A DNA stretch of 64,000 nt from Tagaea sp. (GTDB taxonomy: Bacteria; Pseudomonadota; Alphaproteobacteria; CACIAM-22H2), in NCBI GenBank assembly GCA_044356395.1, contig JBIKWI010000001.1:3921-67920 (forward strand), in the 5' to 3' direction. Below the pieces are notes generated by a model that had not been told where the DNA came from, made no database searches, and saw only the letters and a list, made by a program, of their open reading frames with translations. Position 1 is the stretch's first letter, and each line of letters opens with the position of its first letter. Shown piece after piece: positions 9,236 to 45,996 of the stretch. The translations under genes were made by a program, and so were the position numbers.

Positions 9236-9248
9236 CGTTCCGGCCCTC

Positions 9249-10274: not shown

Positions 10275-10317
10275 CTTTGTTTCCTCCTGGTGTCGTTCGG
10301 CTCTGTCGGCCGTTGCT

Positions 10318-14986: not shown

Positions 14987-15024
14987 GAGGTTCCTCCGGG
15001 TTTTGACTTCGGCGTTTCTGGTTT

Positions 15025-23347: not shown

Positions 23348-23501
23348 TGATATATCCAGTGGTTATGGATTGGAGACCAGATGGTAGTTGTTCCATTCCG
23401 ACGGAAGTGTCAAGTTTTTGGACATACCGGACCGAGGCCGCACAACGCTCGGCCGGTGGAGGAGGCGCGAACTTGATCGATCCAGTGTACCCGATCCACG
23501 G

Positions 23502-24014: not shown

Positions 24015-24023
24015 AGACGCGCG

Positions 24024-25520: not shown

Positions 25521-25534
25521 ACGGAGGAAGTCAC

Positions 25535-26514: not shown

Positions 26515-27870
26515 ATGTCGAAGGGATTCAACCGACGGGACGCCATCGCCGCCGCAGGCGCCGCGGGCGCCGTCGCCGCGCTGCCGTGGACGCCGGGTGC
26601 CAAGGCCCAGACTGCCAAGGTTGGGCCGTTCACGATCGTCATCAACAACTCGCCATGGTTCGACGGATTCCGGGGCGCAGTCGAGGCATACGAGAAGGAG
26701 TCGGGCAACAAGGTCAATCTCGACGTCAACCCGTTCGGCGGGAGTCTCGAGAAGCAGCGCGCTTCCGTGCGCGCGCGCGATGGCCAGTTCGACCTGCTGA
26801 TCATGAACGGCCTCTACTACCAGGAAATGTATCACGGGGGCTTCCTGACGCCGATCAACGAGATCGATCCGTCGTTCCGTCTCGATCCGCAGATGATCAA
26901 GTACGACAACACCGTGTTCTGGGACGAGGCGAGCAAGACCCATTCGCCGTCGGGCAAGCTGATGTCGGTACCGATCAACGGCAACATCCCTCTGCTGCTC
27001 TACCGCGCCGACCTCTATGCCGAGCACAAGCTGAAGGTGCCGGAAACCTGGGACGAGCTTCTGGCCAACGCCAAGAAGCTTCACAATCCGCCGCGCATGT
27101 ACGGCATCGTGCAGCGCGGGGCGCGCGGGTCTCCGAACGACATCTCGTACGACTGGTGGCCGTATCTCTACAGCCATGGCGGCAAGCTGTTCCGCGACGA
27201 GCCGAAGGGCGACTACACGATCACGATCAACAGCCCGGAAGGCAAGGCGGCTCTCGACTTTTACATCCGCATGGCCAAGGAGGCGGGCCATCCGCAGACA
27301 GGTGGCCTTGCCCAGGCGCAGATCATCCAGAACCTGGCGACCGGGCGTGCCGCCCATGCGCTGCTCGTCATCGCCGCTTGGTCGCAGATGGACGATCCCA
27401 GCAAATCGGCGGTCGTCGGCAAGCTCAACGCCGCGCGTGTGCCCGGTTCCGCCAAGGGCAAGCCCGCGCCGGTGCTGGGCCATTGGCTCGGCGGAATCCC
27501 GAAGAACGTGCCCAAGCCGCGTCAGGAGGCGGCGCTCACGTTCCTCAAGTGGTTCCAGACCCGCGATGCGCAGATGAAGTACCTCGCGGCCGGCGCGCCG
27601 CCGGTCCGTCAGGACGTGCTGTCCGACCAGAACCTGTGGAAGGATCCGAAGAACCGCTGGATGCCTGCGATGGCGCAGAGTTCGGAGTTCGTGCAGCTGA
27701 TGTGGAGCGTCCCCGAGGGCTCGCAGATCGGCGACGTTCTCGAACTTCGGCTCAACCAGGCCGTCATCGGGGAGCTGACGACCGACCGGGCGCTCAACAT
27801 GATCGCGGACGAATGCCACGCGATCATGCAGCGCGCCGGCTACAAAACCGGGAAGATCGCTGCCCTGTAA
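26515..27870 (+). CDS. Sugar ABC transporter substrate-binding protein (CUT1 / family-1 SBP), Tat-type signal; paralog of the SBP at 1-1083
   Basis: Start MSKGFNRRDAIAAAGAAGAVAALPW; AGGGAGGA RBS; C-terminal ...IMQRAGY like the SBP at 1-1083. Confidence 0.85.
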   Translation: MSKGFNRRDAIAAAGAAGAVAALPWTPGAKAQTAKVGPFTIVINNSPWFDGFRGAVEAYEKESGNKVNLDVNPFGGSLEKQRASVRARDGQFDLLIMNGLYYQEMYHGGFLTPINEIDPSFRLDPQMIKYDNTVFWDEASKTHSPSGKLMSVPINGNIPLLLYRADLYAEHKLKVPETWDELLANAKKLHNPPRMYGIVQRGARGSPNDISYDWWPYLYSHGGKLFRDEPKGDYTITINSPEGKAALDFYIRMAKEAGHPQTGGLAQAQIIQNLATGRAAHALLVIAAWSQMDDPSKSAVVGKLNAARVPGSAKGKPAPVLGHWLGGIPKNVPKPRQEAALTFLKWFQTRDAQMKYLAAGAPPVRQDVLSDQNLWKDPKNRWMPAMAQSSEFVQLMWSVPEGSQIGDVLELRLNQAVIGELTTDRALNMIADECHAIMQRAGYKTGKIAAL

Positions 27871-27891
27871 GGGGTTGCTACGGGAAGGTCT

Positions 27892-27923
27892 GCCGGGGCC
27901 GCATCGGTCGATGCGGCCCCGGC
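27892..27923 (+). other. Perfect 14-bp stem-loop (GCCGGGGCCGCATC-GGTC-GATGCGGCCCCGGC) in the SBP-permease intergenic region; no U-tract
   Basis: Read directly; its position mirrors known intra-operon SBP/permease hairpins that set differential mRNA stability. Confidence 0.5.
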
Positions 27924-27951
27924 CGACGCCAAGGTACGGAACGGGACTGAC

Positions 27952-28842
27952 ATGGCAGCAAGAAGCGTGAAGATCGATACGAAGTGGCGCGCGATCGCGC
28001 TGACGCCGACGGCCGCGATCTTCGTCCTGATGTCGATCCTGCCGGTGATCAACCTCATGGCGATGAGCGTCAACGAGATCACCTGGGTCGATGGCAAGTC
28101 GGTCTGGACCTATGTCGGATTGGCGCACTACCGGCGCCTTGCCGACGACACGCTTCTGCGTGCCGGCATCTCCAATACCTTCATCTTCGCCATCGCCGGC
28201 GTGACGGCGCAGGTCGTCATCGGCTTCCTGCTCGCCTGGGCGGTCAGTCGCGTGCGCAGCGGACGCCTCGCTTACCGCACGATTTTCATCCTGCCGATCC
28301 TGGTCCCCGGCATCCTGATCGGCGCCGTCTGGAAGCTCATGCTGAACTACGATTTCGGACTCGCGAACGCGTTTCTCGATCTGTTCGGCATCCATCCGGT
28401 CGACTGGCTGGGTACGCGCGCCTTTGCGCTTCCCTCGGTCATCGTCGTCGACATCTGGCACTGGACGCCCTTCTGCTTCCTGCTTCTGCTTGCCGGGTTC
28501 GAATCGCTGCCGCAGGACGTGCAGGAGGCTGCGCGTGTCGACGGAGCGACCACGTGGGACGAACTGCGCTACGTGCTGATCCCGATGATGATGCCGGTCA
28601 TCGTGGTGACGTTCCTGTTCCGCTTCGTGACGTCGCTGAAGGTTTTCGACGAGATCTACCTGCTGACGGGCGGTGGGCCCGGCTCGGCGACTGAGGTCAT
28701 CAGCTACACGATCTACCGGACCTTCTTCACGCAGGACCGGATGGGCTACGGTTCGGCAATGTCGGTGGCCGTGCTGTTCGGCATCTCGCTGCTGATCGTC
28801 GGCGCGCTGTCGGCGGCGCGTCGCCAGGGAGGCCGGACATGA
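27952..28842 (+). CDS. Sugar ABC transporter permease (MalF-like)
   Basis: EAA loop QEAARVDGATTWDELRYVLIP. Confidence 0.9.
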   Translation: MAARSVKIDTKWRAIALTPTAAIFVLMSILPVINLMAMSVNEITWVDGKSVWTYVGLAHYRRLADDTLLRAGISNTFIFAIAGVTAQVVIGFLLAWAVSRVRSGRLAYRTIFILPILVPGILIGAVWKLMLNYDFGLANAFLDLFGIHPVDWLGTRAFALPSVIVVDIWHWTPFCFLLLLAGFESLPQDVQEAARVDGATTWDELRYVLIPMMMPVIVVTFLFRFVTSLKVFDEIYLLTGGGPGSATEVISYTIYRTFFTQDRMGYGSAMSVAVLFGISLLIVGALSAARRQGGRT

Positions 28843-29669
28843 ATCCCTCCGAGCGCCGCGGTATCGGCTTGTTCCACGTCTTCCTGCTGACGGTTGCCAT
28901 CTTCGTGCTGGTCCCGTTCGTGTGGATCGTCGCGGCCGGCTTCAAGACGCAGATATCGCTGCTGCAGGGCGAGATCTTCTTCACGCCGTCGCTGAACAGC
29001 TTCCGCGAAGTTCTGTTCTCGCGCACGACCGAGTTCCTCGACAACACGCTCAACAGCTTCATCGTAGCGACCGCGAGTACGCTGGTGATCGTGTTCGCGG
29101 CGACGCTCGGCGGCTACGCGATCGAGCGGTTGGGGACGCCGCGCTGGATGGTCCACACGATGCTGGGCTGGGCCGTGGTCTTCCACATGGTGCCGCCGAT
29201 CACGCTGGTCGCCGCGTGGTTTCCGCTGTACCGCGAGATCGGCCTCGACAACACCTATCTCGGCCTCACGCTCGGCCACGTCGCAGTCCATCTGCCGATG
29301 GCGCTTTGGCTAATGACGAACTTCATCCGCGACGTGCCGGTGGAACTCGAGGAGGCCGCGCGCATCGACGGTTGCTCGACGCCCTATCTCATCTGGCGGA
29401 TCGTCGTGCCGCTTGTGGCGCCCGGGCTCGCGGCAACCGCGATCCTGATGTTCATCTTCAGCTGGAACGAGTTCGCCGTGGCCCTGAACCTGACCGCCAA
29501 GCAGACGGCGACCGTACCCGTCGCGATCGCCAAGTTCGCGCAAGGCTACGAGATCAAGTACGGCGAGATGGCGGCCACGGCCGCCCTCTCGCTGGTTCCG
29601 GCACTGGCCTTCCTGCTGTTCGGACAACGCTACATCGTCAAGGGACTTACGACGGGAGCCGTGAAGTAA
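28839..29669 (+). CDS. Sugar ABC transporter permease (MalG-like)
   Basis: EEAARIDGCSTPYLIWRIVVP; ATGA overlap. Confidence 0.9.
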   Translation: MNPSERRGIGLFHVFLLTVAIFVLVPFVWIVAAGFKTQISLLQGEIFFTPSLNSFREVLFSRTTEFLDNTLNSFIVATASTLVIVFAATLGGYAIERLGTPRWMVHTMLGWAVVFHMVPPITLVAAWFPLYREIGLDNTYLGLTLGHVAVHLPMALWLMTNFIRDVPVELEEAARIDGCSTPYLIWRIVVPLVAPGLAATAILMFIFSWNEFAVALNLTAKQTATVPVAIAKFAQGYEIKYGEMAATAALSLVPALAFLLFGQRYIVKGLTTGAVK

Positions 29670-29671
29670 AG

Positions 29672-30862
29672 ATGCCGACGATCTATGGACAGAAGTTGAC
29701 GCGCCGGGAGTTCGAACGCCGTGTCGGCGCCACGCGGCAGATCGCGGGCGTCAGCCTCGTGACGCTGGATGACGGCGCCGAGCGTGGCGTGCGTGCGGTC
29801 GAATTCCGGACGGGCGCCGGTCTCGACTTTTCGGTTCTCGTCGACCGTACGATGGATATCGGGCGGTTCGACTATCGCGGCGTGCCGTTCGCATGGCAGT
29901 CCGATACCGGATTCCGCAACCCGGCCTTCATGGATCCGATGGGCGACGGCGGTAACGGGTTCATGCGCGGCTTCTCCGGCCTCCTCTGCACGTGCGGCTT
30001 CGACCATGTTCGCCAGCCCGACACTGGGCCGGCCGATCACTTCGATCTGCCGCTGCGCAAGGAGATCGTCTATCCGATGCATGGCCGAGGCGCGTTCCAG
30101 CCGGCCCGGCTCGATGGCTACGGCGAAGTCTGGGATGGCGACGAGTGCACGCTTTGGTGCGAGGGCACGGTCGCTCAGGTCCAGGTCATGGGGGAGAACC
30201 TCGCGTTCGTCCGGCGCGTCGAGGTAAAGGTCGGCTCTTCCGATGTCCGTATCCGCGACACGATCACCAACCGCGGCTTCTCGCGTACGCCGCATCTGCT
30301 GCTCTACCACATCAACATCGGATGGCCGCTGCTGGAGGCCGGTGCCCGCTTCGTGGCGCCCATACGCGGAACGTTTGCGGCGAATGTTCCGCGAGAGAGC
30401 CAGCAGGCAGGCTGGCGCACCCAGATCGATCCTGCGTCGCGCTTCGTCCAGCAGGTTTTCGACCACGACGCCGTCGCCGACGCAAACGGTCGCGTGCCTG
30501 CCGCACTTGTCAATGACCGGATCGGCCTCGGCTTCCTCGTCGACTACGATGCGCGGCAGTTCATTTGCCTGCAGCAATGGCAGGCCTTCGGCGAGGGTGT
30601 CTATGGGTTCGGCATCGAGCCGGCGACGACCCGCTGGGGCAATCGCGCCGACGCCATGCGTCGGGACGAGATCGCGTGGCTCGAACATGGCGAGACGCGC
30701 AGCTACACGACCGTCCTGTCCGTCCTGCACGGGGCGGCCGATATCGCCGCACTCGACGCGCGCGTCGAGGCGATCCATCCCGCCGCTACCGACGAGTTTC
30801 CGGTCCGCAGCGACCAGTCGCCGGGCGGTCCGTTCGTTACAACGCTTCCGAGGGTCCGATGA
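29672..30862 (+). CDS. DUF4432-like protein (galactose-mutarotase / aldose-1-epimerase-like fold), function unknown
   Basis: 396 aa; N-terminal YGQKLTRREFERRVG...GVRAVEF...GLDFSVLVDRTMDI and C-terminal GFGIEPATTRW resemble DUF4432 / aldose-epimerase-family proteins as I recall them. Confidence 0.55.
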   Translation: MPTIYGQKLTRREFERRVGATRQIAGVSLVTLDDGAERGVRAVEFRTGAGLDFSVLVDRTMDIGRFDYRGVPFAWQSDTGFRNPAFMDPMGDGGNGFMRGFSGLLCTCGFDHVRQPDTGPADHFDLPLRKEIVYPMHGRGAFQPARLDGYGEVWDGDECTLWCEGTVAQVQVMGENLAFVRRVEVKVGSSDVRIRDTITNRGFSRTPHLLLYHINIGWPLLEAGARFVAPIRGTFAANVPRESQQAGWRTQIDPASRFVQQVFDHDAVADANGRVPAALVNDRIGLGFLVDYDARQFICLQQWQAFGEGVYGFGIEPATTRWGNRADAMRRDEIAWLEHGETRSYTTVLSVLHGAADIAALDARVEAIHPAATDEFPVRSDQSPGGPFVTTLPRVR

Positions 30863-32331
30863 GCCAGAAGCCGACCAACGTCCTTTTCATCCTCTCGGAC
30901 GAGCATACCCGCGACGTCGCGGGCTGCTACGGCCACAAGATCGTCAAGACGCCGCATCTGGACCGGCTCGCGGCGCGTGGAACCAAGTTCACCGCCGCCT
31001 ATACGAATTGTCCGATCTGCGTCCCGGCGCGGGCTGCCCTGCACACCGGGACGTACGTGGCCCAGAACGCGTGCTGGGACAATGCGCATCCCTATGACGG
31101 CTCGATCCGCAGCTGGGCGCACCGGCTCAAGGATGCCGGCCATTTTTCGATGTCGATCGGCAAGCTGCATTTCCGCTCCTCGAAGGACGACAACGGCTTC
31201 GACGAAGAAGTCATCCCGCTGCATGTCGTGGACGGAGAGGGGGATCTGCTCGGACTGATCCGCAGGCCGAAAGCCGCCACGCGCGGCGGGATGCCGGATC
31301 TCGCCAAGGCGGCGGGACCCGGCGAGTCGACCTATGCGAAGTACGATCGCAACATCCGCGATGGGGCGGTCGAGTGGCTTACGAAGCACGCCAAGGCACA
31401 GACAAAGCCATGGTGCCTGTTCGTGTCGTTCGTGAAGCCGCATTTCCCCTTGATCGCACCGCCCGAGTTCTTCGCGATGTATCCGCCGGAATCGCTGCCG
31501 ATGCCGCGTCTCTACGGTCCCGAGGACTATCCGAAGCATCCGTCGGTCGCGGCCCTGCGCAGCTGCATGAGCTACGACGACTTCTTCACGCCGGAAAAGG
31601 TGCGCGTCGCCCTTGCCGCCTATTACGGCATGGTCAGCTTCCTCGACGACAATATCGGGCAGGTGCTTGCGGCACTCGAAGCGGCCGGGCTCTCGGACAC
31701 GACGCGCGTGGTCTACTCCACCGACCACGGCGACAATCTCGGCACGCGCCACATGTGGGGCAAGTCGATCCACTACGAGGAAGCCGCCGCGATACCGATG
31801 ATCGTCGCGGGACCGGGCATCCCGGCCGGCAAGACCTGCCCCACGCCGGTCACGCTTGTCGACGTCTATCCGACGATCATCGAGAGCGTGGGGCTGGTAC
31901 CCGACGCGACGGAGAAGGCGTTGCCCGGGCGCTCGCTGGTCGATCTCGCCAACTCGCCGCCGGTCGACCGCGTGGCGTTCGGCGAGTATCACGCCGCCGG
32001 CTCGATCACCGCGATGTACATGGTCCGGAAGGGACGCTGGAAGCTCATCTACCATGTCGGCTACCGGCCGGAGCTGTACGATCTTGAAGCCGATCCGGGA
32101 GAGACCAAGGATCTGGGCGAGAGCACGGCGCATCGCGACACGCTCGCGATGATGGAAGCCGAGCTGCGCAAGATCGTCGACCCCGAAGCGGTCGACGCGC
32201 GGGCGTTCGCCGACCAGGAGGCGAAGATCGCGAAGTTCGGCGGGGTCGAGGCGCTGATCAAACGCGGCGATTTCGGCTATTCGCCCGCACCCGGCGAGAA
32301 GCCGGTTTTCGCGACCCGAATCGAGGCGTAG
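30859..32331 (+). CDS. Cys-type sulfatase, predicted cytoplasmic
   Basis: CPICVPARAALHTG (C-x-P-x-R); LFILSDEH; no signal peptide; ATGA overlap with the upstream gene. Confidence 0.9.
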   Translation: MSQKPTNVLFILSDEHTRDVAGCYGHKIVKTPHLDRLAARGTKFTAAYTNCPICVPARAALHTGTYVAQNACWDNAHPYDGSIRSWAHRLKDAGHFSMSIGKLHFRSSKDDNGFDEEVIPLHVVDGEGDLLGLIRRPKAATRGGMPDLAKAAGPGESTYAKYDRNIRDGAVEWLTKHAKAQTKPWCLFVSFVKPHFPLIAPPEFFAMYPPESLPMPRLYGPEDYPKHPSVAALRSCMSYDDFFTPEKVRVALAAYYGMVSFLDDNIGQVLAALEAAGLSDTTRVVYSTDHGDNLGTRHMWGKSIHYEEAAAIPMIVAGPGIPAGKTCPTPVTLVDVYPTIIESVGLVPDATEKALPGRSLVDLANSPPVDRVAFGEYHAAGSITAMYMVRKGRWKLIYHVGYRPELYDLEADPGETKDLGESTAHRDTLAMMEAELRKIVDPEAVDARAFADQEAKIAKFGGVEALIKRGDFGYSPAPGEKPVFATRIEA

Positions 32332-32335
32332 ACGC

Positions 32336-33865
32336 ATGACCCGCAAGCCGAACATCCTGCTCATCACCTCCGACCAGCAGCGGGGCGACTGCTACGGCTT
32401 CGAAGGCCGCAAGGTCCGCACGCCGCATCTCGACATTCTGGCGGGCGAGGGGACGCGGTTTTCCGCGTGCATCACGCCAAACGTCGTCTGCCAGCCGTCG
32501 CGCGCCTCGATCCTCACGGGCCTGCTTCCGCGCACGCACGGCGTCTGGGACAACGGTATCGACCTCGACGAGGATGTCGGAAACGCCGGCTTTGCCGGTA
32601 CTTTCGCGAAGGCGGGGTATCGCACCGGCTTCATCGGGAAAGCCCATTTCTCGACTTTCCATACCTTCAAACCGACCGGGCGACCGGAGTGCCGGTCGAG
32701 TTCGCATGAGTTCGGTGCGGACTGGTCGGGACCCTATATGGGCTTCCAGCATGTCGACATGATGATTGCCGGCCATAACATGTTCCTGCCGCAGAAGCCG
32801 CCCGAAGGCCTCCAGTACGAGGCCTGGTACCACAAGGACGGCCGAGGCGAGATGCTCAACAAGCTGTTTTCGACGAAGCTCCCGCCCGACGTGGGCGCTG
32901 CCCAGACATGGAATTCGGCACTTCCGCCGGCGTTCCACAACTCGACTTGGATCGGCGACCGCACGATCGACTTCATGCGCGACAACAAAGACAGACCTTG
33001 GGTCGCGTGGGCCTCGTTCCCAGATCCCCATCATCCCTTCGATGCGCCTGCACCCTGGTGCTATCTGCACCATCCCGACGACATTGACCTTCCTGTCCAC
33101 CGCACGAAAGACCTGGAGCGCCGGCCGTGGTGGCACAAGGCGAGCCTCGAAGGTATCCCCAAGCTCGACGATCCGGAGCTTCAGGCTTTCCGCGCCAAGC
33201 AATCGCGTACGCCCGAACAGACCGATCTCCAACTGCGCCATCTTATCGCGAACTATTACGGGATGATCTCGCTGATCGACCACAATGTCGGACGCATCCT
33301 GCTGTCGCTCGAGCGGCTGGGCCTCGACCGCGACACGCTGGTCGTCTTCACGACGGACCACGGCGACTGGCTGGGCGACCATGGTCTGCTGCTCAAGGGG
33401 CCGATCCACTACGAGGGACTTCTTCGCATCGGCTGCATCGTTCGTGGACCCGGCGTGCCGAAGGGCAAGATCGTGCCGTATCCCGTTTCCACGCTCGATC
33501 TCACATCGACGTTCTACGACTACGCTTCGCTGTCGCCGGATCGTGCCCTCCATTCGCGCAGCCTTCGCCCCTTGATGGAGGGCGATAGCACGCGCGATTT
33601 CGCCTACAACGAATGGGATCTGCATCCGTCGCGCTGCGGCGTGGCGCTCAAGCTGCGGACGGTACGCACGCGTACCCACAAGCTGACACTCGAACTCGAT
33701 TCAGGCGCCGGCGAACTCTACGACCTCGTCGGCGATCCGCACGAGATGGATAACCGGTTCGGCGATCCGGCCGTGGCCGGCGTTCAGCGCGAACTCGTCG
33801 ACATGATCCGCAGTCGGCCGGACGACGTGCGCGTTCCGGCTCCGCAACCGGTAGGAATGGCCTAG
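32336..33865 (+). CDS. Cys-type sulfatase, predicted cytoplasmic
   Basis: VVCQPSRASILTG (C-x-P-x-R); LLITSDQQRGD; no signal peptide. Confidence 0.9.
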   Translation: MTRKPNILLITSDQQRGDCYGFEGRKVRTPHLDILAGEGTRFSACITPNVVCQPSRASILTGLLPRTHGVWDNGIDLDEDVGNAGFAGTFAKAGYRTGFIGKAHFSTFHTFKPTGRPECRSSSHEFGADWSGPYMGFQHVDMMIAGHNMFLPQKPPEGLQYEAWYHKDGRGEMLNKLFSTKLPPDVGAAQTWNSALPPAFHNSTWIGDRTIDFMRDNKDRPWVAWASFPDPHHPFDAPAPWCYLHHPDDIDLPVHRTKDLERRPWWHKASLEGIPKLDDPELQAFRAKQSRTPEQTDLQLRHLIANYYGMISLIDHNVGRILLSLERLGLDRDTLVVFTTDHGDWLGDHGLLLKGPIHYEGLLRIGCIVRGPGVPKGKIVPYPVSTLDLTSTFYDYASLSPDRALHSRSLRPLMEGDSTRDFAYNEWDLHPSRCGVALKLRTVRTRTHKLTLELDSGAGELYDLVGDPHEMDNRFGDPAVAGVQRELVDMIRSRPDDVRVPAPQPVGMA

Positions 33866-34012
33866 ATGCTGTATCCAGGCAGATGGTTGCGCCCGACGGG
33901 CGACAGGCGTCCGGGATCCGGGTGGACGCAGGTAGCGAGTTCCGGCGCGCCGTGACGCGCGGCGACGTCTATCGCTATCGCCTCGATCTAAGTTAACGAG
34001 CGGGAGTCCGGC

Positions 34013-36154: not shown

Positions 36155-36909
36155 TCGAAATCAACATCACGCTTCGAACGACCGACGGACAGATGCCAGT
36201 CTTCATCGTCCATCCGGACGAGGGCGGTCCGTTCCCGACCGTTGTCTTCTACATGGACGCGCTCGGCATCCGGGAGGAACTGCGCGACATGGCGCGGCGT
36301 TGCGCGTCCGCCGGCTACTACGCGATGCTTCCCGACCTCTACTATCGCTGGGGATGCCCGAGCTTCGATCCCGCACCTTTGGCGCAGGGAATCCTCGACC
36401 CGAAAATGGTCGAGCTCAACAACACGCTGTCGGTACCCATGACGGCACTCGATACTTCGACCCTGCTCGAGCACGCCGCCGGCGATCCGGCAGCCCGTCT
36501 GCCGGCCGCAACGGTCGGCTACTGCATGGGCGGTCGCCATGCGCTCGGCGCGGCCGCAGCCCATTCAAGTTCGGTCGCGGCCTTCGCATCGCTGCATGGC
36601 GGGCGTCTGGTCAACGACACGCCGCAGTCTCCGCATCTGTCGATCGCGAAGACTTCGACGGCCGAAGCCTATTTCGGTTGGGCTGACGACGACCCGACCG
36701 CGCCGCCGGAGCATCTGCGCGCGATCGAGACGGCGCTTGCCGAGCGCGGCGGACGGTATCGTGTCGAGTTCCACGCGGGCGCGTTGCACGGGTTCACGTT
36801 TCCGGAGCGCTATTGCTACCACAAGCAGGCGGCCGAGCAGGTCTGGGCCCGGCTGTTCGCGATGTTTCGCCGATGTCTGCACGGGCCTGCGACACAGGGA
36901 AGGACGTAG
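36151..36909 (+). CDS. Dienelactone hydrolase family protein
   Basis: GTG start overlapping the upstream stop (GTGA); ITLRTTDGQMPVFIVHP...GYCMGGRHAL nucleophile-elbow motif of the DLH family. Confidence 0.75.
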   Translation: MIEINITLRTTDGQMPVFIVHPDEGGPFPTVVFYMDALGIREELRDMARRCASAGYYAMLPDLYYRWGCPSFDPAPLAQGILDPKMVELNNTLSVPMTALDTSTLLEHAAGDPAARLPAATVGYCMGGRHALGAAAAHSSSVAAFASLHGGRLVNDTPQSPHLSIAKTSTAEAYFGWADDDPTAPPEHLRAIETALAERGGRYRVEFHAGALHGFTFPERYCYHKQAAEQVWARLFAMFRRCLHGPATQGRT

Positions 36910-36912
36910 AGC

Positions 36913-37887
36913 ATGACGACACGTTTCGCGATGATCGGATGCGGCGGTTTCTCGCGCCGGTATCATGTCCCGACACTTTTGGCCGACACGGACGTCAGGC
37001 TCGTCGGAATTTTCGACCCGTTTCCGGCTCCGGCGGTCGGCGATCTCGCGCGCGCGACGGGTGCGCGTATCGTCGACAAGCTCGATGACCTGCCCGACGC
37101 CGATGCGGTTCTGATCACCACACCGCATATGCTGCATGCTGGACATGCCGATCACGCGATGGCGCGCGGCTGGGCTACGCTGGTGGACAAGCCGTTCGTG
37201 ATGAAGACAGCCGACGCACGCCGTCTTGTCGCCGCCGCGACGCAAAGAAAGCTGCTAAATGCGGTCGCCTTCAACCGCCGGCTCGACGCCGGCTGCCGAC
37301 GCGCGCGCGAGATCATCCGGAGCGGCGGCATCGGCGCCGTCCGCTACGTTCAGACCGTGCAACTCGGCTACGAAAAGGCCGGCTGGTTCCTCGATCCCGC
37401 TCTCGGCGGCGGCGGCGCCTACACGGGCCGTGGCACGCATATGGCGGACATCGTGCCTTGGCTGATCGATAGCCGTCCCACGCAGGTGCGCAGCCGTCTG
37501 CGCCCCGGGCCGACGGGACGGGCCGACCTCGGCGGCTTCATCGAGATCGCCTTCCCGGGAATCGAGTGCCAGCTCGCCTGCATCGAGGAAGGCTGGCACA
37601 TGTGGGACGAGATCCGGATATTCGGCGAGGACGGCATGATCGAACTGCGCCGCCCGCTTGCCATGCCCACGGGCTGGCACCTGGTCTGGCAGAGCCGGCG
37701 GGGGGCGGCGCGCGAGGAACTGGCGGCAGCACCCAACGAGGGCCTGATCACGACCGAGTTTCTGAGCGCGTTGCGGAGTGGCACGCCGGTGTCGTGCACG
37801 TTCGCGGACGCGCTTCTTTCAGTCCAGATCATCGAAGCCGCATTCGAATCCGCAGCGGCCGGCTCCAAGACGATCGCCATCGCCTGA
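36913..37887 (+). CDS. Gfo/Idh/MocA family oxidoreductase
   Basis: N-terminal Rossmann FAMIGCGGFSRRYHVP; EKP-like motif VDKPF. Confidence 0.8.
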   Translation: MTTRFAMIGCGGFSRRYHVPTLLADTDVRLVGIFDPFPAPAVGDLARATGARIVDKLDDLPDADAVLITTPHMLHAGHADHAMARGWATLVDKPFVMKTADARRLVAAATQRKLLNAVAFNRRLDAGCRRAREIIRSGGIGAVRYVQTVQLGYEKAGWFLDPALGGGGAYTGRGTHMADIVPWLIDSRPTQVRSRLRPGPTGRADLGGFIEIAFPGIECQLACIEEGWHMWDEIRIFGEDGMIELRRPLAMPTGWHLVWQSRRGAAREELAAAPNEGLITTEFLSALRSGTPVSCTFADALLSVQIIEAAFESAAAGSKTIAIA

Positions 37888-37899
37888 CGCGGAAAAGAC

Positions 37900-38649
37900 A
37901 TGGCGGCGGCGATCGAAATCAACGGTTTGGGCAAGCGCTTCGGCGACGAAGCCGGGCAGCCCGTGCTTGGCAAGGTCGACCTGTCGATCTCCGAGAACGA
38001 GTTCGTCGTACTGTTGGGTCGCAGCGGCTGCGGAAAGACGACGTTGCTCAACATCGTCGCCGGCCTCGAGCAGGCGAGCGCAGGAAGCGTTCGCGTGGAC
38101 GGCGTGGTCGTCACCGGGCCTGGTAACGGCAAGGGCATGGTCTTCCAGCAGGGGGCCCTTTTTCCTTGGCTGACGGCCAAGCGCAACATCGAGTTCGCTG
38201 CCGTCAATCGTGGCCTGCCGCAGGCCCAGGCGGCGAAGCTCGCGGAAGAGCTGCTGGCACTCGTCGGGCTCGCGGGTTCCGAACACAAGTATCCGTTCGA
38301 ACTTTCCGGCGGCATGCAGCAGCGGGTGGCGATCGCACGTGCCCTGGCCCTCGATCCCAAGATTCTGCTTATGGACGAACCGTTCGGGGCGCTCGACGAG
38401 ATCACGCGCAACGAGATGCAGGACGAGTTGCTGCGCGTGTGGGCGCGTCGCCGCAAGACCGTCGTGTTCGTCACGCACTCGATCTGGGAGGGGCTGATTC
38501 TCGCCGACCGGATCCTCGTGATGGCGCCTCGTCCCGGGCGTATCGTGCTGGAGCGACGCATCGACCTGGCGCGCCCGCGCCGACGCAGCGACCCGCAGCT
38601 CGTCGCCCTCTACGACGAGGTCTGGGCGTGTCTGAGGGGCGAAGAATGA
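37900..38649 (+). CDS. ABC transporter ATP-binding protein, NitT/TauT family
   Basis: GRSGCGKTT; LSGGMQQR; LLMDEP. Confidence 0.9.
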
Positions 38650-39437
38650 TCGGCCGGCATGCCGGATGGCTTGTGCCGGTGGCTGTCCTCGCCGCGTTCC
38701 TCGGCCTGTGGGAGTTCGCGGTTGGAGCAGGCTGGCTGCGCCCGATCCAGTTCCCGCCGCCGAGCAAGCTCGCCCGCAGCTTCGTCGACCTTTCGACCGT
38801 CGGCTATCCACAAGGCATAACGCTTTGGGCGCATGCGGGCATCACTTTCCAGCGTATCGTGACCGGGCACCTGCTGGCCGTCGCCCTTGCCGTGCCGCTC
38901 GGCCTGTTGATCGGCAGCCAGCCGCTGCTCGACCGGATGACCGCCCCGATCGTCGCGTTCTGCCGGTCGGTCGCCACGCTGAGCTTGCTTCCGCTCGCGA
39001 TCGTCTGGTTCGGGACCGGCGAGGGCGCCAAGATTTTCCTGATCGGCTATGGCTGCTTCTGGGTCATGTTGTCGGCAAGCATCGCGGCGGTCCAGCTCGT
39101 CGATCCGGTCCTGATCCGCGCCGCGCGCACGATGGATGCCGACGCCCGTACGATTTTCCGGCAGGTGATGCTCCCTGCCTCGCTGCCGCGCCTTCTGGCG
39201 GGGGCGCGCACGGCATTGGGCGTCGGCTTCATGGTCATCGTGGGCGCCGAGATGATCGGCACGATCCACGGACTCGGATCGCTGATCATGGAGGCGCGGA
39301 CCTTCTACCGCACGGACATCACGATGGTCGGCATGTTCTGCATCGGCGGCTTCGGGATCGGCGTGATGCTCGTCCTTGCGCGCGTCGAAGCCTGGCTCGT
39401 CCCGTGGCAGGCAAGGCAGGAGGCGCAGCAGCGATGA
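38646..39437 (+). CDS. ABC transporter permease, NitT/TauT family
   Basis: Start [12 protein letters not shown] (ATGA overlap with the ATPase stop). Confidence 0.85.
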
Positions 39438-40201
39438 CGCGAGCGCCGGGAGCCGTTGAGCGCTACGCTGGCCTGATCGGGGTCGTCATGTTCCTCGGTC
39501 TATGGGAGCTGGCCGCCCGTTTCGGCTGGCGAAATCCTGCGATCATGCCGGCGCCGAGCCAGGCGATACTTGTCGCGCTATCGACGGTTCCGCTCCTCAC
39601 GCTTGTCGAACATGTCGCGACAAGCCTGTGGCGGATCCTTGCGGGGTTCTCGCTCGGCGCTTTGGCGGGAATCGCCCTCGGGATTGCCGCCGGCTGGTAT
39701 CGACCGGTCGCCCTCGTCAGCCGTCCCTTCGTCGAGATCCTGCGACCGATCCCGCCGCTTGCCTGGATCCCGATCGCGATCGTCTGGTTCGGGATCGGCG
39801 AACCTTCGAAAATTTTCGTCATCTTCCTCGGCACGTTCTTTCCGGTCTTCAGCAGCGCCGCACGCGGCATGGCATCGATCCAGCCCGCGATCCTGCGCGC
39901 GGCCCGGACGATGGACGTGGACGGACTGCGACTGCTCGTCAAGGTCGCGGTTCCGGCCGCGATGCCGGATATCGCGACGGGGCTGCGCATCGGCTTCGGC
40001 CTCGGCTTCGGCGTGCTCGTGGCGGCCGAACTAATCGCCGCCGAGCGCGGCATGGGCCATCTCGTCATGGAAGCCCGCCAGCTCGGACAGCTCGGCATCT
40101 CGGTCTTCGGAATATTCCTGATCGGACTCGTGAATCTCGTCGCCGACCAGCAACTCGCCGCGGCAATCCGCCGGACGGTGGGGCGCTGGCACCATTTCTA
40201 G
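39434..40201 (+). CDS. ABC transporter permease, NitT/TauT family
   Basis: Start [13 protein letters not shown] (ATGA overlap). Confidence 0.85.
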   Translation: MTRAPGAVERYAGLIGVVMFLGLWELAARFGWRNPAIMPAPSQAILVALSTVPLLTLVEHVATSLWRILAGFSLGALAGIALGIAAGWYRPVALVSRPFVEILRPIPPLAWIPIAIVWFGIGEPSKIFVIFLGTFFPVFSSAARGMASIQPAILRAARTMDVDGLRLLVKVAVPAAMPDIATGLRIGFGLGFGVLVAAELIAAERGMGHLVMEARQLGQLGISVFGIFLIGLVNLVADQQLAAAIRRTVGRWHHF

Positions 40202-40220
40202 AAACAGAGGAGGCAACGCC

Positions 40221-41255
40221 ATGGATCGCCGGACATTCCTTGCCACGACCACCGCAGTACTCGTCTCGCCAGCGATCGCCAAGGCCCAGGCGCGCCCGGA
40301 GATTTCGAAGCTCGGGATCGGTTTCGGGCTCGATCCGGTCTTCGCGCCGCACATCGTCGCCATGCAGAAGGGTTGGCTGCGCGAGGCGGGCTTCACCGAG
40401 ATCACCACGCCGAGCTTCACCAGTGGCGCGCTCGCCGGCGAGGCGCTGATCGGCGGTCAGATCCATCTCTGGACGCCGGGCAACCAGCCACCGATTTCGA
40501 TGGCGAACTCCGGCGTGCCGGCGGTCGTACTCGGCACGAACTGCATCGCCGCGAAGGCCGAGCAACTGATCGTGCGCAACGACGCGAACGTGAGCAAGCC
40601 CGAAGACCTGTACCGCATAAAGATAGGACTGCTTGCGGGGTCGACTGCCAGTGCCACGCTCCACAATCTCGCAAAGCTCTACAAGCTTGACGAGAGCAAG
40701 CTGCAGGTCGTCAACATGCCGCCGCCCGAGCAACTTGCCGGCCTTACCAGCAACAACATCCAAGCCTTGTTGTGCTGGCAGCCGTGGGCGCACAATGCCT
40801 TGAAGCTCGGAAACACCTCGATGCTGCATTCCGGCACCAACAGCGGCTTTGCCGCCAACAAGGGGGCGGCTGTCGCCGTCTCGGCGACGCGTTCGATATT
40901 CGTCGCGAGCGAGGAATTCGTGCGGAAGAATCCGGTTGCGACCCGCACGCTGATGGCCGTTCTCGTCCGTGGCCAGAAGTATGTGGCGAACCCCGCCAAC
41001 CGGGCCGAAGTTCTGGAACTGGTGTCCGCGCAGACCAAGCAGGACAGATCCCTCGTCGAGGCGATCTGGGGGGACTACGACTTCAATCCGGCATTCGACG
41101 ACGCTTATGTGGCCGATATGGAATCGATGAGCGGCTACCTCGTCGCCTCGGGCCGCATCAGGGCACCCAAGCATCCGCTGGACTACACGTTCTCGGACCC
41201 GGTTGCGGCGGCCGATCCGGCGCTTGTACGTCGCCCCGGCCGCTGGAAGACCTGA
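40221..41255 (+). CDS. ABC transporter substrate-binding protein, NitT/TauT (NMT1-like) family
   Basis: Start MDRRTFLATTTAVLVSPAIAKAQA, a Tat-like signal. Confidence 0.8.
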   Translation: MDRRTFLATTTAVLVSPAIAKAQARPEISKLGIGFGLDPVFAPHIVAMQKGWLREAGFTEITTPSFTSGALAGEALIGGQIHLWTPGNQPPISMANSGVPAVVLGTNCIAAKAEQLIVRNDANVSKPEDLYRIKIGLLAGSTASATLHNLAKLYKLDESKLQVVNMPPPEQLAGLTSNNIQALLCWQPWAHNALKLGNTSMLHSGTNSGFAANKGAAVAVSATRSIFVASEEFVRKNPVATRTLMAVLVRGQKYVANPANRAEVLELVSAQTKQDRSLVEAIWGDYDFNPAFDDAYVADMESMSGYLVASGRIRAPKHPLDYTFSDPVAAADPALVRRPGRWKT

Positions 41256-41260
41256 GCCGG

Positions 41261-42286
41261 ATGGCGCGGGTCGGGATCGCGTTCGTCGGCACCGGATCGA
41301 TTGCCGACTATCATCTGGCCGGACTGGGCGCGGTCCCGAATGCCGACGTGCGCGTCATCGTCGGCCGCGATGCGGACAAGACACAGGCTGCGGCCGCCCG
41401 CTACGGCATCGCCGACGCAAGCGTGGACCTTCCCACCGCTCTTGGCAGGCGGGACGTCGAGGCTGTCATCATCGCAACGCCCGACGACACGCACGAGGCC
41501 ATTGCGGCGGAGGCGGCGGACAGGGGAAAGGCGGTCCTCCTGCAGAAGCCGATGGCGGCCGACAGTTCGGCCTGCCGGCGGATCATCGCCACGGCGGCGG
41601 CGGCAAACGTCGATCTGCAGGTCAGCTTCATGCACCGGTATTTCGAAGAGTTCCGCATGGCACGCGAACTCGTCGCCGACGGCGCCATCGGCGAAGTGAC
41701 GAGTGTCCGCCTGCGCAACGCAACGCCGGGTCCAGACTGGGCCGACTGGTTCTTCAAGAAGTCGCGCGTCGCCGGCGGCGTCGTCCTTCAGCTCGGCGTT
41801 CATGGAATCGACCTGCTGACGCAGATGTGCGGCCACGTGGCCGCCGTATCGGCAACGACGGCGATCCTGCGTGCCGAACGCCTGCTGGCCGACGGACGCC
41901 GCGTGGCCGTCGAGAACCCGGACAGCGCATGGGCGGTCTACTCGATGGCTAACGGAACGGTGGCATCGCACGAGATGTCGATGATCGAAGCGAGGGGCTG
42001 CGACCGGTTCAGGTTCGAGATCTACGGGACGAAAGGCACCATCTGGCTGCGGAGCGAACTGGGCCCGCTCGCACTGGATTGCGGTGACGGAAAAGGATGG
42101 AAAATGCCGGTCGTTCCGACGCCGCCATTCGGCCAGCGCCAGCATCAGCGCTGGATCGACGGGATCACCGGCACAAAGACGCGCGAGCGGACGGCGCTTG
42201 ACGCATTGAACGGCATCCTGATCGCCGAAGCGATCGGACGATCCAGCGCAGTCTCCGGCGCCCGCGTATCGGTGGAGTCCGCATGA
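41261..42286 (+). CDS. Gfo/Idh/MocA family oxidoreductase
   Basis: Start MARVGIAFVGTGSIADYH; LQKPM motif. Confidence 0.85.
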   Translation: MARVGIAFVGTGSIADYHLAGLGAVPNADVRVIVGRDADKTQAAAARYGIADASVDLPTALGRRDVEAVIIATPDDTHEAIAAEAADRGKAVLLQKPMAADSSACRRIIATAAAANVDLQVSFMHRYFEEFRMARELVADGAIGEVTSVRLRNATPGPDWADWFFKKSRVAGGVVLQLGVHGIDLLTQMCGHVAAVSATTAILRAERLLADGRRVAVENPDSAWAVYSMANGTVASHEMSMIEARGCDRFRFEIYGTKGTIWLRSELGPLALDCGDGKGWKMPVVPTPPFGQRQHQRWIDGITGTKTRERTALDALNGILIAEAIGRSSAVSGARVSVESA

Positions 42287-43302
42287 TCCGCATCGCGATC
42301 CTGAGTTTCGCGCATTACCACGCGAACTTCTGGGCCGAGGCCTTCCTGGCCGAGCCGGATGTCGTCTTGGCGGCGATCTGGGACGACGATGTCGCGCGGG
42401 GTACGGAGGCAGCCGGTCGTTTCGGCGTGCCGTTCGTCCCGGACCTCGATCGGGCGATCGACGCCTGCGATGCCGTTGCCGTCTGCAGCGAAACCGTGGC
42501 GCATGCCCCGCTGATCGAGCGTGCCGCGAAGGCAGGGCGAGCCGTCCTGTGCGAGAAGCCGATCGCCATCGACCTGATCGAGGCCGCGCGCATCGGGGCG
42601 GCTGTGCGCGATGGCGGAATTGCGTTCATGCAGAGCTTTCCAAAGCGCTTCGATCCGGCGTCGCACGAGCTACGACGACTCGTGATGTCGGGCGAACTCG
42701 GACGGATCGGTCTCGTCCGCATCCGTCACGGCCACTTCTATGGCCTTGAGGCCGACTTTGCGAGTCGCTGGTACGTCGATCCGGCCAGATCCGGCGGCGG
42801 AGCCCTCCTCGACGAGGGCGTCCACGCAGCGGACTTCCTCTGCTGGACCTTCGGCATGCCCAGGAGCGTACTCGCGTCGGCCTCGTCGGCGCTCGGGTTG
42901 CCGGTCGAAGATCAGGCAATCGCGTTGTTCGAGTATGCGGATGGGATGACGGCCGAAGTCATCGCGAGTTTCGCGTTCGCGGCGGCGGACACGTCGATCG
43001 AGATTTACGGCTCGAACGGAACCGCACTTCTCTCGGGCGTCGATCTGGCGTCGCGCGATATCTCGAAAGGCCCGTTTCTCCGGACATTCACGCGAGACCA
43101 GGTCGTCCGGGAGTGGACCCCTTCGCCGTTGGTCCCGCAGTTCAAGCTAGGCTGGTTCCACCACCAGAACGCCATCGCGTTCGCTGCCGCGCTGCGACGT
43201 GGCGAGGCGCCGCCGATATCGCTGGACGACGGCATCCGTGCATTGACGATGATCGCACGTGCCTACGAATCGGTGCGGAGCGGCCGACGCATCGAATTCT
43301 AG
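42283..43302 (+). CDS. Gfo/Idh/MocA family oxidoreductase
   Basis: Start MIRIAILSFAHYHANFWAEAF; CEKPI motif; ATGA overlap with the upstream gene. Confidence 0.85.
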   Translation: MIRIAILSFAHYHANFWAEAFLAEPDVVLAAIWDDDVARGTEAAGRFGVPFVPDLDRAIDACDAVAVCSETVAHAPLIERAAKAGRAVLCEKPIAIDLIEAARIGAAVRDGGIAFMQSFPKRFDPASHELRRLVMSGELGRIGLVRIRHGHFYGLEADFASRWYVDPARSGGGALLDEGVHAADFLCWTFGMPRSVLASASSALGLPVEDQAIALFEYADGMTAEVIASFAFAAADTSIEIYGSNGTALLSGVDLASRDISKGPFLRTFTRDQVVREWTPSPLVPQFKLGWFHHQNAIAFAAALRRGEAPPISLDDGIRALTMIARAYESVRSGRRIEF

Positions 43303-43318
43303 ACGTCCGGACGCGCCG

Positions 43319-44116
43319 TCAGGCATTCGTCTCCGCGGCGCGCATTGCTTCGACGCGGATCTCCTCGGTGAGACGCGCCTTGAGGGCCGAAAACTCGGGG
43401 CTTGTCTTGACCGTGTAGTGGCGCGGATGCGGCAGATCGACCGGGATGTCGGCCTTGATGCGGCCGGGCCGTGCGGTCATCACCAGGACGCGAGAAGCCA
43501 TAAAGATCGCCTCTTCGATATCGTGGGTAACGAAGATCACGGTCTTGCGGTCCCGTTCCCAGATGCCGAGCAGCAGTTCCTGCATGAGCCCGCGGGTCTG
43601 GTTGTCGAGCGCGCCGAACGGCTCGTCGAGAAGAAGAATTTCGGGATCGTTGGCAAGGGCACGCGCGATCGCGGTTCTCTGCTGCATGCCCCCGGAGAGT
43701 TGCTTGGGCAGGTGCTTCTCGAAGCCCTTCAAGCCGACCCTGTCGACATATATCGAGACCGACTCGGCGATCTCGCGCTCCGTCACGCCGCGTTCGCGCA
43801 GGCCGAAGGCCACGTTGTCGGCCACCGTCAGCCACGGGAACAGCGTATAGGACTGGAAAACCATGCCGCGATCGGGGCCGGGGCCTTCGATCGCGTGCCC
43901 GTCGAGCAGCACGCGCCCGGTACTTGGCCGGTCGAGCCCGGCGACGATGCGCAACAGGGTCGATTTCCCGCAACCCGAGGGGCCCAGGATCGTGATGAAG
44001 TCGTTCCGGGCGATCGAAAGTCCGGTGGGCTCGAGCGCCTTGAGTGCTGGCCTGCCGCCCACGCCCGGAAACGTGCGCGACACGCCTTCGACACGCAGCT
44101 TCGGCGTCTCCGTCAT
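43319..44116 (-). CDS. ABC transporter ATP-binding protein, NitT/TauT family
   Basis: Start MTETPKLRVEG; GPSGCGKST; LSGGMQQR; LLLDEP. Confidence 0.9.
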   Translation of the reverse strand: MTETPKLRVEGVSRTFPGVGGRPALKALEPTGLSIARNDFITILGPSGCGKSTLLRIVAGLDRPSTGRVLLDGHAIEGPGPDRGMVFQSYTLFPWLTVADNVAFGLRERGVTEREIAESVSIYVDRVGLKGFEKHLPKQLSGGMQQRTAIARALANDPEILLLDEPFGALDNQTRGLMQELLLGIWERDRKTVIFVTHDIEEAIFMASRVLVMTARPGRIKADIPVDLPHPRHYTVKTSPEFSALKARLTEEIRVEAMRAAETNA

Positions 44117-44895: not shown

Positions 44896-44950
44896 GGCGC
44901 GGTCAGTGCGGGCAGGCGCCGGATACGGGGGTGCACCCGGCGCCCGTCCG

Positions 44951-45892: not shown

Positions 45893-45996
45893 TTCCGCCT
45901 CCATGCCTGGTATCCGGGGCCGGTCGGCCCTTGTTGGCGCGATGTTAGGCGGCCCGGCGGTGGTTTGTATAGGGGAGGTTGCAAGTTCGGGGCCGC

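Follow-up and report, generated by a model that had tools for sequence, protein, structure and literature searches.

A candidate two-module catabolic locus for a small, probably sulfated compound, built around an uncharacterised PHP-fold protein family in a Tagaea-like alphaproteobacterium

What does a bacterium break down with a locus that encodes two importers, two cytoplasmic sulfatases, three oxidoreductases, and a 713-amino-acid (aa) protein from an uncharacterised family, all on one strand? The question is raised by positions 26515–43302 of a 64-kb stretch of Tagaea sp. DNA from contig JBIKWI010000001.1 (hereafter, the window). The gene array in this interval consists of two modules (Table 1). 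Module 1 (26515–33865) encodes a CUT1 importer, a DUF4432 protein, and two signal-less Cys-type sulfatases. Module 2 (34013–43302) encodes, in this order, the 713-aa protein, which has a predicted PHP-fold domain, a dienelactone-hydrolase-family protein (DLH), the Gfo/Idh/MocA oxidoreductase Gfo1, a NitT/TauT importer, Gfo2, and Gfo3. The tentatively preferred reading is that a Tagaea-like alphaproteobacterium of freshwater has here a composite catabolic locus, in which two modules that recur together serve the use of a small anionic, probably sulfated, carbohydrate-like compound. Its parts differ in strength. That the array genes form a functional unit can be proposed with good confidence from comparative sequence evidence, and the gene set probably represents one breakdown pathway for a small sulfated compound. 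Sulfate esters are rather likely to be substrates in this organism; a sugar or polyol as the backbone of the substrate is a more doubtful assignment than the locus reading as a whole, and a sulfated sugar is a plausible candidate.

The coherence of the gene set was assessed in 39 proteobacterial loci of at least 15 kb by counting neighbors within 10 kb of the gene encoding the PHP-fold protein (the PHP gene). Neighbors were called by BLAST of the window proteins and from public gene calls, with CUT1 binding proteins counted at 40% identity or more; single-linkage clustering of six-frame open reading frames (ORFs) was set aside because of contamination by antisense ORFs in high-GC genomes. At least one Gfo orthologue lies near the PHP gene in 33 of the 39 loci, a NitT/TauT binding protein in 28, DLH in 23, a sulfatase of the sulfatase A type (sulfA) in 20, a CUT1 binding protein in 18, and DUF4432 in 11. 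Both importers are present in 14 loci and both sulfatases in 12. The same gene set thus recurs across Alpha- and Betaproteobacteria, with its order sometimes shuffled, which argues for a functional unit rather than chance juxtaposition and bears out the suggestion of a preliminary description of this DNA that the genes belong together.

Individual loci (designated L001 and so on) illustrate this recurrence. Two Tagaea loci (L001 and L004, 79% identity) match the array in all 15 genes and in their order and have a GntR gene in addition. Low-GC freshwater Betaproteobacteria (L019 and L092) carry the same set in the order sulfB-DLH-Gfo-CUT1-DUF4432-sulfA-PHP, with no NitT/TauT importer. The PHP gene is found without a NitT/TauT importer also in L008, L013, and L014, and likewise, together with module 1, in L018. 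Orthologues of the CUT1 binding protein (54–61% identity) adjoin the PHP gene in distant Betaproteobacteria, and DUF4432 homologues with at least 60% identity and an examined context all reside in this cluster type; three examined homologues at about 50% identity are found in other contexts, one of them with Gfo and AP_endonuc_2 genes. The typical betaproteobacterial locus reads GntR-PHP-ATPase-permease-permease-NMT1-Gfo-Gfo-DLH-Gfo, often with a sulfatase nearby and, in several cases, with RidA and D-ser_dehydrat genes.

The best matches of the 713-aa protein are in Tagaea metagenome-assembled genomes (MAGs; Rhodospirillales). Homologues of 43–80% identity occur in Alpha- and Betaproteobacteria and Acidimicrobiia, and those of 31–38% identity in Chloroflexota and haloarchaea. 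Distant full-length paralogues (26–34% identity) are encoded on plasmids of Klebsiella pneumoniae (14 records), Agrobacterium vitis, Azospirillum, Rhizobium, Sulfitobacter, and Natrinema; the K. pneumoniae paralogue is annotated as 'hypothetical protein' in the rows listed. In A. vitis and K. pneumoniae, a GntR gene and a NitT/TauT-type importer (identity to the window: ATPase 44%, permease 33%, binding protein 24%) flank the paralogue, forming minimal cassettes at 5424–11262 of L094 (A. vitis plasmid) and 4324–10082 of L096 (K. pneumoniae IncFIB plasmid), while GntR and PHP genes stand without an adjacent ATP-binding cassette (ABC) importer in Azospirillum (L097, 6963–10268). In three haloarchaeal loci, homologues of the NitT/TauT-type ATPase and permease lie beside the PHP gene, and an adjacent NMT1 binding protein was confirmed in L076. 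Because the cassette of GntR, NitT/TauT importer, and PHP gene is seen from Klebsiella plasmids to haloarchaea, the ancient unit appears to be regulator, NitT/TauT importer, and PHP hydrolase, to which a proteobacterial subfamily would have added Gfo and DLH genes and often sulfatases, CUT1, and DUF4432. Module 2 would thus be the older core and module 1 the addition. This portable genomic signature, which reaches K. pneumoniae IncF plasmids, rhizobia, and haloarchaea, offers an experimental handle: ligands of the binding protein or of the repressor could reveal what thousands of genes do. Cultivable carriers include Bosea sp. LjRoot90, Roseomonas sp. AR75, and strains with the K. pneumoniae plasmids. 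Separately, a Chloroflexota locus (L063, 13451–18373) has a PHP homologue followed by two ~700-aa 'Phosphodiest' proteins of the alkaline phosphatase superfamily, to which the sulfatases also belong, beside an ABC importer.

Fifteen plus-strand genes were found in the array by ORF and codon-position-bias analysis, one fewer than the sixteen counted earlier; the sixteenth may be a relic ORF of 37 aa, called in public gene annotations within a 147-bp gap between the modules. The close packing described for the array agrees with the measured junctions, which in gene order are 81, −4, 2, −4, 4, 147, −4, 3, 12, −4, −4, 19, 5, and −4 bp (negative values denote overlaps). Six junctions are 4-bp overlaps and the rest measure 2–19 bp, except for the 81-bp gap (27871–27951), which contains a hairpin, and the 147-bp gap (33866–34012). 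An ORF at 38666–40201 is an artefact that spans the two true NitT/TauT permease genes in two frames. The G+C content of the window is about 65%. Signals resembling intrinsic terminators or promoters show no excess over shuffled sequences inside the array, and Rfam gave no match in 22000–44500.

Every family named previously for the array was reproduced by Pfam: SBP_bac_1, BPD_transp_1, DUF4432, Sulfatase and SGSH_C (two proteins), DUF3604, DLH, GFO_IDH_MocA (three proteins), ABC_tran, and NMT1. In the set of window genes searched with Pfam, there is no glycoside hydrolase and no MalK/UgpC-type (CUT1, TOBE-type) ATPase, as had been noted, and no formylglycine-generating enzyme or xylose-isomerase-like AP_endonuc_2 protein. 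The array contains no aminotransferase or deacetylase gene, and none of its proteins reaches a curated equivalog (NCBIfam) threshold. Export signals are carried only by the two binding proteins; the chemistry is therefore expected to be cytoplasmic, in keeping with the earlier proposal.

Structure prediction, which the preliminary description had recommended for the 713-aa protein, resolved its architecture: a PHP-fold domain stands between β-sandwich domains. The AlphaFold model, built on 54 homologues, is confident (predicted local distance difference test 89.7; predicted template modeling score 0.90), and in it residues 1–245 form β-sandwich domains, residues ~250–480 an α/β domain, and the remainder to the C terminus further β-sandwich domains. 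The central domain is predicted to adopt the distorted (βα)7 barrel of the PHP superfamily. Foldseek returned immunoglobulin-like matches only, and no solved-structure relative was found by single-sequence or profile search of PDB sequences. The match to DUF3604 (PF12228) scores 40.2 bits versus a gathering threshold of 20.4, with the better of two stretches aligning only residues 286–345 to positions 124–184 of 591, and public precomputed matches are marked 'faint' or 'weak'; the protein is best called a member of a DUF3604-like sister family. Identity as a CehA/McbA metallohydrolase (NF038032) was rejected (35.6 bits versus a cut-off of 80, over residues 400–548 only). Residues Asp255, His257, His287, Glu322, His349, His382, His404, His407, and Asp431 are invariant, and a role as metal ligands is plausible. 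No signal peptide was found in the protein.

The family to which this protein belongs comprises 1,668 representatives of 50%-identity clusters at E ≤ 1e-30 (8,219 at E ≤ 1e-3), mostly of 700–790 aa, and no characterised member or solved structure was found in it; the analysis thereby isolates a large uncharacterised family of PHP-fold enzymes. Compared with the PHP-family metal-dependent hydrolases TM0559, 3e38, PsfC, EndoQ, and RNase AM and the carbaryl hydrolases CehA/McbA, the 713-aa protein has four extra β-sandwich domains, no sequence-level match to any solved structure, and a first motif of H-x-Q rather than H-x-H. Unlike the PHP hydrolases, its family is linked to NitT/TauT importers and not to nucleic-acid or histidinol-phosphate chemistry.

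The enzymes around the PHP gene define the kind of chemistry expected. Both sulfatases were classified as S1 formylglycine sulfatases, a class defined by a PF00884 domain together with a C/S-x-P-x-R-x4-TG motif: they score 130–138 bits on PF00884 and have the maturation motifs CVPARAALHTG (sulfatase A) and CQPSRASILTG (sulfatase B). Their domains start at residues 5–7, which leaves no room for a signal peptide, so both are predicted to be cytoplasmic, as first described. The best PDB match of sulfatase A is choline sulfatase 6fny (E = 4e-59), although assignment as the choline sulfatase equivalog was ruled out (TIGR03417, 294.7 bits versus a cut-off of 433; sulfatase B, 186.2 bits). The best PDB matches of sulfatase B are 4uph and an exo-2S-iota-carrageenan sulfatase (E ~1e-40). 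The mutarotase fold attributed to the DUF4432 protein is supported by a full-length match (277 bits versus a gathering threshold of 32.5, profile positions 2–304 of 304) and by its sole PDB match, the 'hypothetical aldose 1-epimerase' 3ty1 (E = 2e-31).

DLH has a GTG start that overlaps the preceding stop codon by 4 bp, aligns to positions 2–216 of 217 of PF01738, and carries the nucleophile motif GYCMGG (family pattern G-x-C/S-x-G-G); an orthologue of 252 aa is called in public contigs. All three Gfo proteins contain the N- and C-terminal Gfo/Idh/MocA family domains and have 6nor as best PDB match (77–98 bits), followed by inositol, scyllo-inositol, anhydrofructose, and sugar-3-keto enzymes. 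Assignment as the inositol 2-dehydrogenase IolG was ruled out (TIGR04380, 79, 138, and 116 bits versus 355), and no iolBCDE genes are present. Gfo2 and Gfo3 are kept as an adjacent pair 3′ of the NMT1 binding-protein gene in related loci.

Both importers depend on binding proteins. For the CUT1 importer, the binding protein and two permeases are present, and no TOBE-type ATPase is found among the window genes scanned. CUT1 importers commonly use a shared ATPase encoded elsewhere. The solved structures closest to the CUT1 binding protein are maltose, trehalose, and sorbitol binders. The NitT/TauT importer is complete, with NMT1 binding protein, ATPase, and permeases. Its binding protein has weak PDB matches to TauA and SsuA, and both identities were ruled out (SsuA_fam, 84.9 versus a cut-off of 163.5; TauA, 60.3 versus 304); it is placed in the NitT/TauT transporter family, yet is predicted by curated thresholds to be no sulfonate or taurine binder.

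Table 1. Positions of the genes and other elements of the locus within the window.
Feature	Position	Strand	Basis
LysR gene, divergent from the Tct genes	22373–23347	−	Pfam LysR
TctB, TctA, TctC (tripartite tricarboxylate transporter)	23388–26479	+	Pfam TctB/TctA/TctC
CUT1-type substrate-binding protein, twin-arginine signal (RRDAI)	26515–27870	+	SBP_bac_1, 112 bits
GC-rich stem-loop right after the CUT1 binding-protein gene, no T-run	27888–27927	+	Fold energy versus shuffles
Two CUT1 permeases, 4-bp overlap	27952–28842, 28839–29669	+	BPD_transp_1
DUF4432 protein, aldose-1-epimerase-like fold	29672–30862	+	PF14486, 277 bits; PDB 3ty1
Sulfatase A, cytoplasmic Cys-type S1 (CVPAR), choline-sulfatase-like	30859–32331	+	Pfam Sulfatase and SGSH_C
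Sulfatase B, cytoplasmic Cys-type S1 (CQPSR)	32336–33865	+	Pfam Sulfatase and SGSH_C
Remnant (last ~20 codons) of an otherwise deleted GntR/UTRA regulator gene, in the gap 33866–34012	33935–33996	+	tblastn
713-aa cytoplasmic protein: two N-terminal β-sandwich domains, central PHP-fold domain, C-terminal β-sandwich domains	34013–36154	+	AlphaFold model; marginal DUF3604
Dienelactone-hydrolase-family esterase/lactonase (DLH)	36151–36909	+	PF01738, 114 bits
Gfo/Idh/MocA oxidoreductase 1 (Gfo1)	36913–37887	+	Pfam; best PDB 6nor, 77 bits
NitT/TauT ATPase	37900–38649	+	ABC_tran
NitT/TauT permeases	38646–39437, 39434–40201	+	BPD_transp_1; boundaries from ORF/codon-bias analysis
NMT1 binding protein, Tat (twin-arginine) signal RRTFL	40221–41255	+	Pfam NMT1
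Gfo2, Gfo3, 4-bp overlap	41261–42286, 42283–43302	+	Pfam GFO_IDH_MocA

In the pathway proposed here, the binding-protein-dependent importers would bring in, intact, at least one small, anionic, carbohydrate-like compound that is probably sulfated, and the sulfatases would strip sulfate esters in the cytoplasm. The PHP hydrolase would cleave a further ester or amide bond, the Gfo enzymes would oxidise ring or anomeric hydroxyls in an NAD(P)-dependent manner, and the DLH enzyme would open the resulting lactone or ester, with the product passing into central metabolism. The earlier view that such a pathway is undescribed agrees with the literature searched, where no such pathway was found and DUF3604 and DUF4432 were mentioned only incidentally. 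The combination of cytoplasmic sulfatases, whole-molecule import, and no glycoside hydrolase would point to the use of small sulfated metabolites, a part of freshwater and soil sulfur–carbon cycling that is far less studied than the desulfation of marine polysaccharides.

Parts of this scheme have counterparts in known systems. As in choline-O-sulfate utilisation (BetC with an ABC importer), a cytoplasmic Cys-type S1 sulfatase would act on a small sulfate ester imported intact, and 6fny is the nearest solved relative of sulfatase A; unlike in that system, betA and betB are absent here, and Gfo enzymes, a PHP hydrolase, and a protein resembling mutarotases accompany two sulfatases. The ats locus of Pseudomonas, a sulfur-scavenging system of the cys regulon with no oxidoreductases, combines the arylsulfatase gene atsA with atsRBC for a NitT/TauT-type importer of sulfate esters. 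The pairing of a NitT/TauT-family importer with an S1 sulfatase is shared with the present locus, whereas here the importer lies amid three Gfo genes, DLH, and PHP, and relatives are under GntR/UTRA control. The sulfo-Entner–Doudoroff pathway of sulfoquinovose acts on a C–S sulfonate and relies on a dehydratase and an aldolase rather than on sulfatases. Its logic of importer, mutarotase, NAD-dependent sugar dehydrogenase, and lactonase for an anionic sulfur-containing sugar resembles that of the array, which however has no dehydratase or aldolase. Closest in enzymatic style are Gfo-dependent oxidation–elimination–hydration–reduction pathways for levoglucosan (PMC7676230), for β-elimination of O- and C-glycosides (PMC10628242), and in a broad-specificity gut pathway (bioRxiv 10.1101/2024.03.25.586180). 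Like the present locus, they combine several Gfo/Idh/MocA enzymes with a metal-dependent barrel enzyme and no glycoside hydrolase, and act in the cytoplasm on imported compounds (in their case, glycosides or anhydro-sugars). They use xylose-isomerase-like (AP_endonuc_2) lyases or hydratases, whereas here none was found, the barrel has the PHP fold, and sulfatases are present. A 3-keto-glycoside oxidation–elimination pathway, which is defined by a Gfo 3-dehydrogenase together with AP_endonuc_2, was rejected, as Gfo is present and no AP_endonuc_2 occurs among the scanned window genes. What would be new is a catabolic operon in which the breakdown of a sulfated organic compound is organised around a family of uncharacterised PHP-fold hydrolases; the logic of importing a compound whole and desulfating it inside is known.

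Comparison with relatives suggests that the two modules have been joined in this lineage by the loss of a regulator. The 147-bp gap is the deletion scar of a GntR/UTRA repressor gene. Such a gene is located directly 5′ of the 713-aa homologue in 40 of 81 related loci, often with a 4-bp overlap, and is carried by the nearest relative (L003, proteins 83–99% identical) at 9178–9981; its counterpart in L001 is at 9198–10004. A tblastn search detected 18 residues with 94% identity at 33937–33990, and a stretch of 814 bp in L003 corresponds to just 69 unrelated bp in the window (compared regions: window, 33866–34012; L003, 9109–9981; L001, 9120–10004). The same scar is seen in at least six independent samples: of the public contigs whose 713-aa protein is 100% identical, six show it with the 37-aa ORF (four from JGI metagenomes, one NCBI MAG, and one SRA assembly). 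It is therefore no assembly artefact, and the deletion is fixed in a natural population. In eight distinct loci, a 16-bp palindrome, AAATGTTYATACATTT, occurs once per locus beside a TTGAC box just 5′ of GntR, and related palindromes are found at the same position in betaproteobacterial loci; the 16-bp palindrome is absent from the whole window, also when three mismatches are allowed. With the palindrome absent and only a relic of GntR present, the lineage has lost both the repressor and the operator–promoter. The gap itself folds no better than shuffled sequences.

After such a deletion, module 2 would probably be transcribed by read-through from module 1, making the array one unit, and we infer one transcription unit in this lineage. 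Of the one or two transcripts suggested earlier, a single one is plausible only in this lineage, where the regulator was deleted; the two halves are separately regulated in relatives. The loss of a repressor and its operator in one lake population is a clean case of regulatory streamlining that apparently fused two units.

Several observations weigh against the composite-locus reading. No family match reaches an equivalog cut-off that would name the substrate. A sulfatase is missing within 10 kb in about half of the module-2 loci, so that sulfate esters may not be the common denominator; the core of GntR, NitT/TauT importer, and PHP gene, to which Gfo genes usually belong in the proteobacterial subfamily, is sulfatase-free in those loci. 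Activity would depend on genes elsewhere in the genome, since neither a formylglycine-generating enzyme nor a CUT1 ATPase is among the scanned window genes. Set against the canonical PHP metal-ligand series (H-x-H, H, E, H, H, D-x-H), the first motif of the 713-aa protein is D-x-H-x-Q and not H-x-H, and the usual D-x-H reads S-D-G-V-D, without His; the metal site and the chemistry may consequently differ from those of known PHP phosphoesterases. D-ser_dehydrat genes, sometimes with RidA, beside the PHP gene suggest a nitrogen-containing substrate in other lineages. Finally, the candidate operator in relatives is found only 5′ of GntR, which suggests that module 2 there has its own GntR/UTRA repressor and that the modules are separately regulated.

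Some of these points would fit two independent systems that happen to be neighbors in an island rich in transporters (within the window are four NitT/TauT, two CUT1, and two tripartite tricarboxylate transporter (TTT) systems), namely an operon for uptake and desulfation of sulfated sugars (CUT1, DUF4432, and two sulfatases) and a cassette (NitT/TauT, PHP, Gfo, and DLH) for an unrelated, non-sulfated compound. About half of the loci have module 2 but neither module 1 nor sulfatases, relatives have it with its own repressor and operator, and the GntR-ABC-PHP cassette stands alone on Klebsiella and Agrobacterium plasmids, as do GntR and PHP without an adjacent ABC importer in Azospirillum. However, the PHP gene travels with module 1 and without the NitT/TauT importer in L008, L013/L014, L018/L019, and L092, in another gene order and in another bacterial class, and the frequencies of sulfA-type sulfatases (20 of 39 loci) and of CUT1 orthologues at 54–61% identity (18 of 39) are judged, with no background frequency computed, to be well above chance. 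Two unrelated systems are regarded as unlikely.

Less probable again is a substrate class of conjugates with an amino group, for example sulfated amino sugars or esters, amides, or carbamates of hydroxy-amino acids. The PHP protein would then hydrolyse amide or carbamate-type bonds in the manner of its distant relatives CehA/McbA, and oxidation of the product to an aminoaldonate would precede its deamination elsewhere. In at least 13 loci of Beta- and Alphaproteobacteria and Acidimicrobiia, a D-ser_dehydrat (PF14031) gene is found no more than 10 kb from the PHP gene, and in many cases next to it, with RidA alongside in several (positions include L002, 20015–21304; L018/L019, ~12650–13860; L035, 7102–8388; L042, 6229–7398; L043, 11868–13136; L083/L084, 8500–9870; and L092, 15389–16681), which suggests an amino-hydroxy-acid product in those lineages. 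Contexts in Acidimicrobiia add CN_hydrolase, MlrC, Amidohydro_3, and DUF4432, and the weak CehA/McbA domain match points in the same direction. Yet neither a D-ser_dehydrat nor a RidA homologue exists anywhere in the window, the CehA/McbA score is less than half of its cut-off, and the array has no aminotransferase or deacetylase. A sulfur-scavenging locus resembling Pseudomonas ats or ssu, which would release sulfate from esters under sulfur limitation instead of using their carbon, is very improbable: the NitT/TauT-type importer beside S1 sulfatases does recall atsRBC-atsA, and the NMT1 binding protein is SsuA/TauA-like, but three dehydrogenases, a lactonase-type esterase, and a mutarotase-like protein imply processing of the carbon skeleton. 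Moreover, the regulator of relatives is of the GntR/UTRA type and not the CysB/Cbl type, and Cys plus Met make up 3.31% of the cluster proteins versus 2.99% of other window proteins, with no bias toward sulfur economy. GntR/UTRA regulators typically control carbon catabolism.

Returning to the composite catabolic locus, a bolder proposal concerns the PHP-fold family itself. DUF3604-like PHP-fold proteins might constitute a new class of cytoplasmic hydrolase or lyase for compounds imported by NitT/TauT systems, working here with three Gfo enzymes on a route that would need no glycoside hydrolase and would in part do without S1 sulfatases. The substrate would first be oxidised beside a leaving group, after which a sulfate, glycosidic, or carbamate-type bond would be eliminated or hydrolysed with the help of the metal. 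This proposal is speculative and improbable as it stands; if true, an elimination route of PHP and Gfo enzymes would explain the sulfatase-free state of half of the related loci.

The 81-bp gap after the CUT1 binding-protein gene contains a perfect 14-bp GC stem, and a 96-nt stretch there folds at −49.9 kcal/mol (z = −3.5 versus shuffles), with no T-tail. An equally strong hairpin occupies the same place, after the stop codon of the binding-protein gene, in L001, L003, L006–L009, L014, L016, and L020, with unrelated stem sequences; the structure is thus maintained while its sequence turns over. It is probably an intra-operon mRNA stabiliser or attenuator. A hairpin after the binding-protein gene is a classic arrangement that raises expression of the binding protein over that of the permeases within one ABC operon.

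The co-directional run in fact starts with the TctB-TctA-TctC genes, which end 35 bp 5′ of the CUT1 binding-protein gene, and the Tct transporter is possibly a third importer of the unit. In L001, too, TctA and TctC genes precede the CUT1 genes, and L003, L006, L007, and L009 have a TctA-like ORF at the same end. A TctC gene is embedded in the betaproteobacterial versions of the cluster in L019 and L092. At its 3′ end the array abuts a convergent second NitT/TauT operon on the minus strand (43319–46168). The window as a whole is an unusually transporter-dense catabolic island with four NitT/TauT systems (6569–10403, −; 13772–17491, −; 37900–41255, +; and the convergent operon), further transport genes at 1–2816 (+), two CUT1 systems that both lack an ATPase of their own, two TTT systems, and one system each of the Opp/Dpp type and of a CUT2-like sugar type. 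Immediately 3′ of Gfo3 (43303–43330), the window has about 35 bp versus about 526 bp in L003 (19284–19809), and L001 has an AraC-family regulator there (19307–20182); this difference may represent a second change in regulatory gene content between close relatives.

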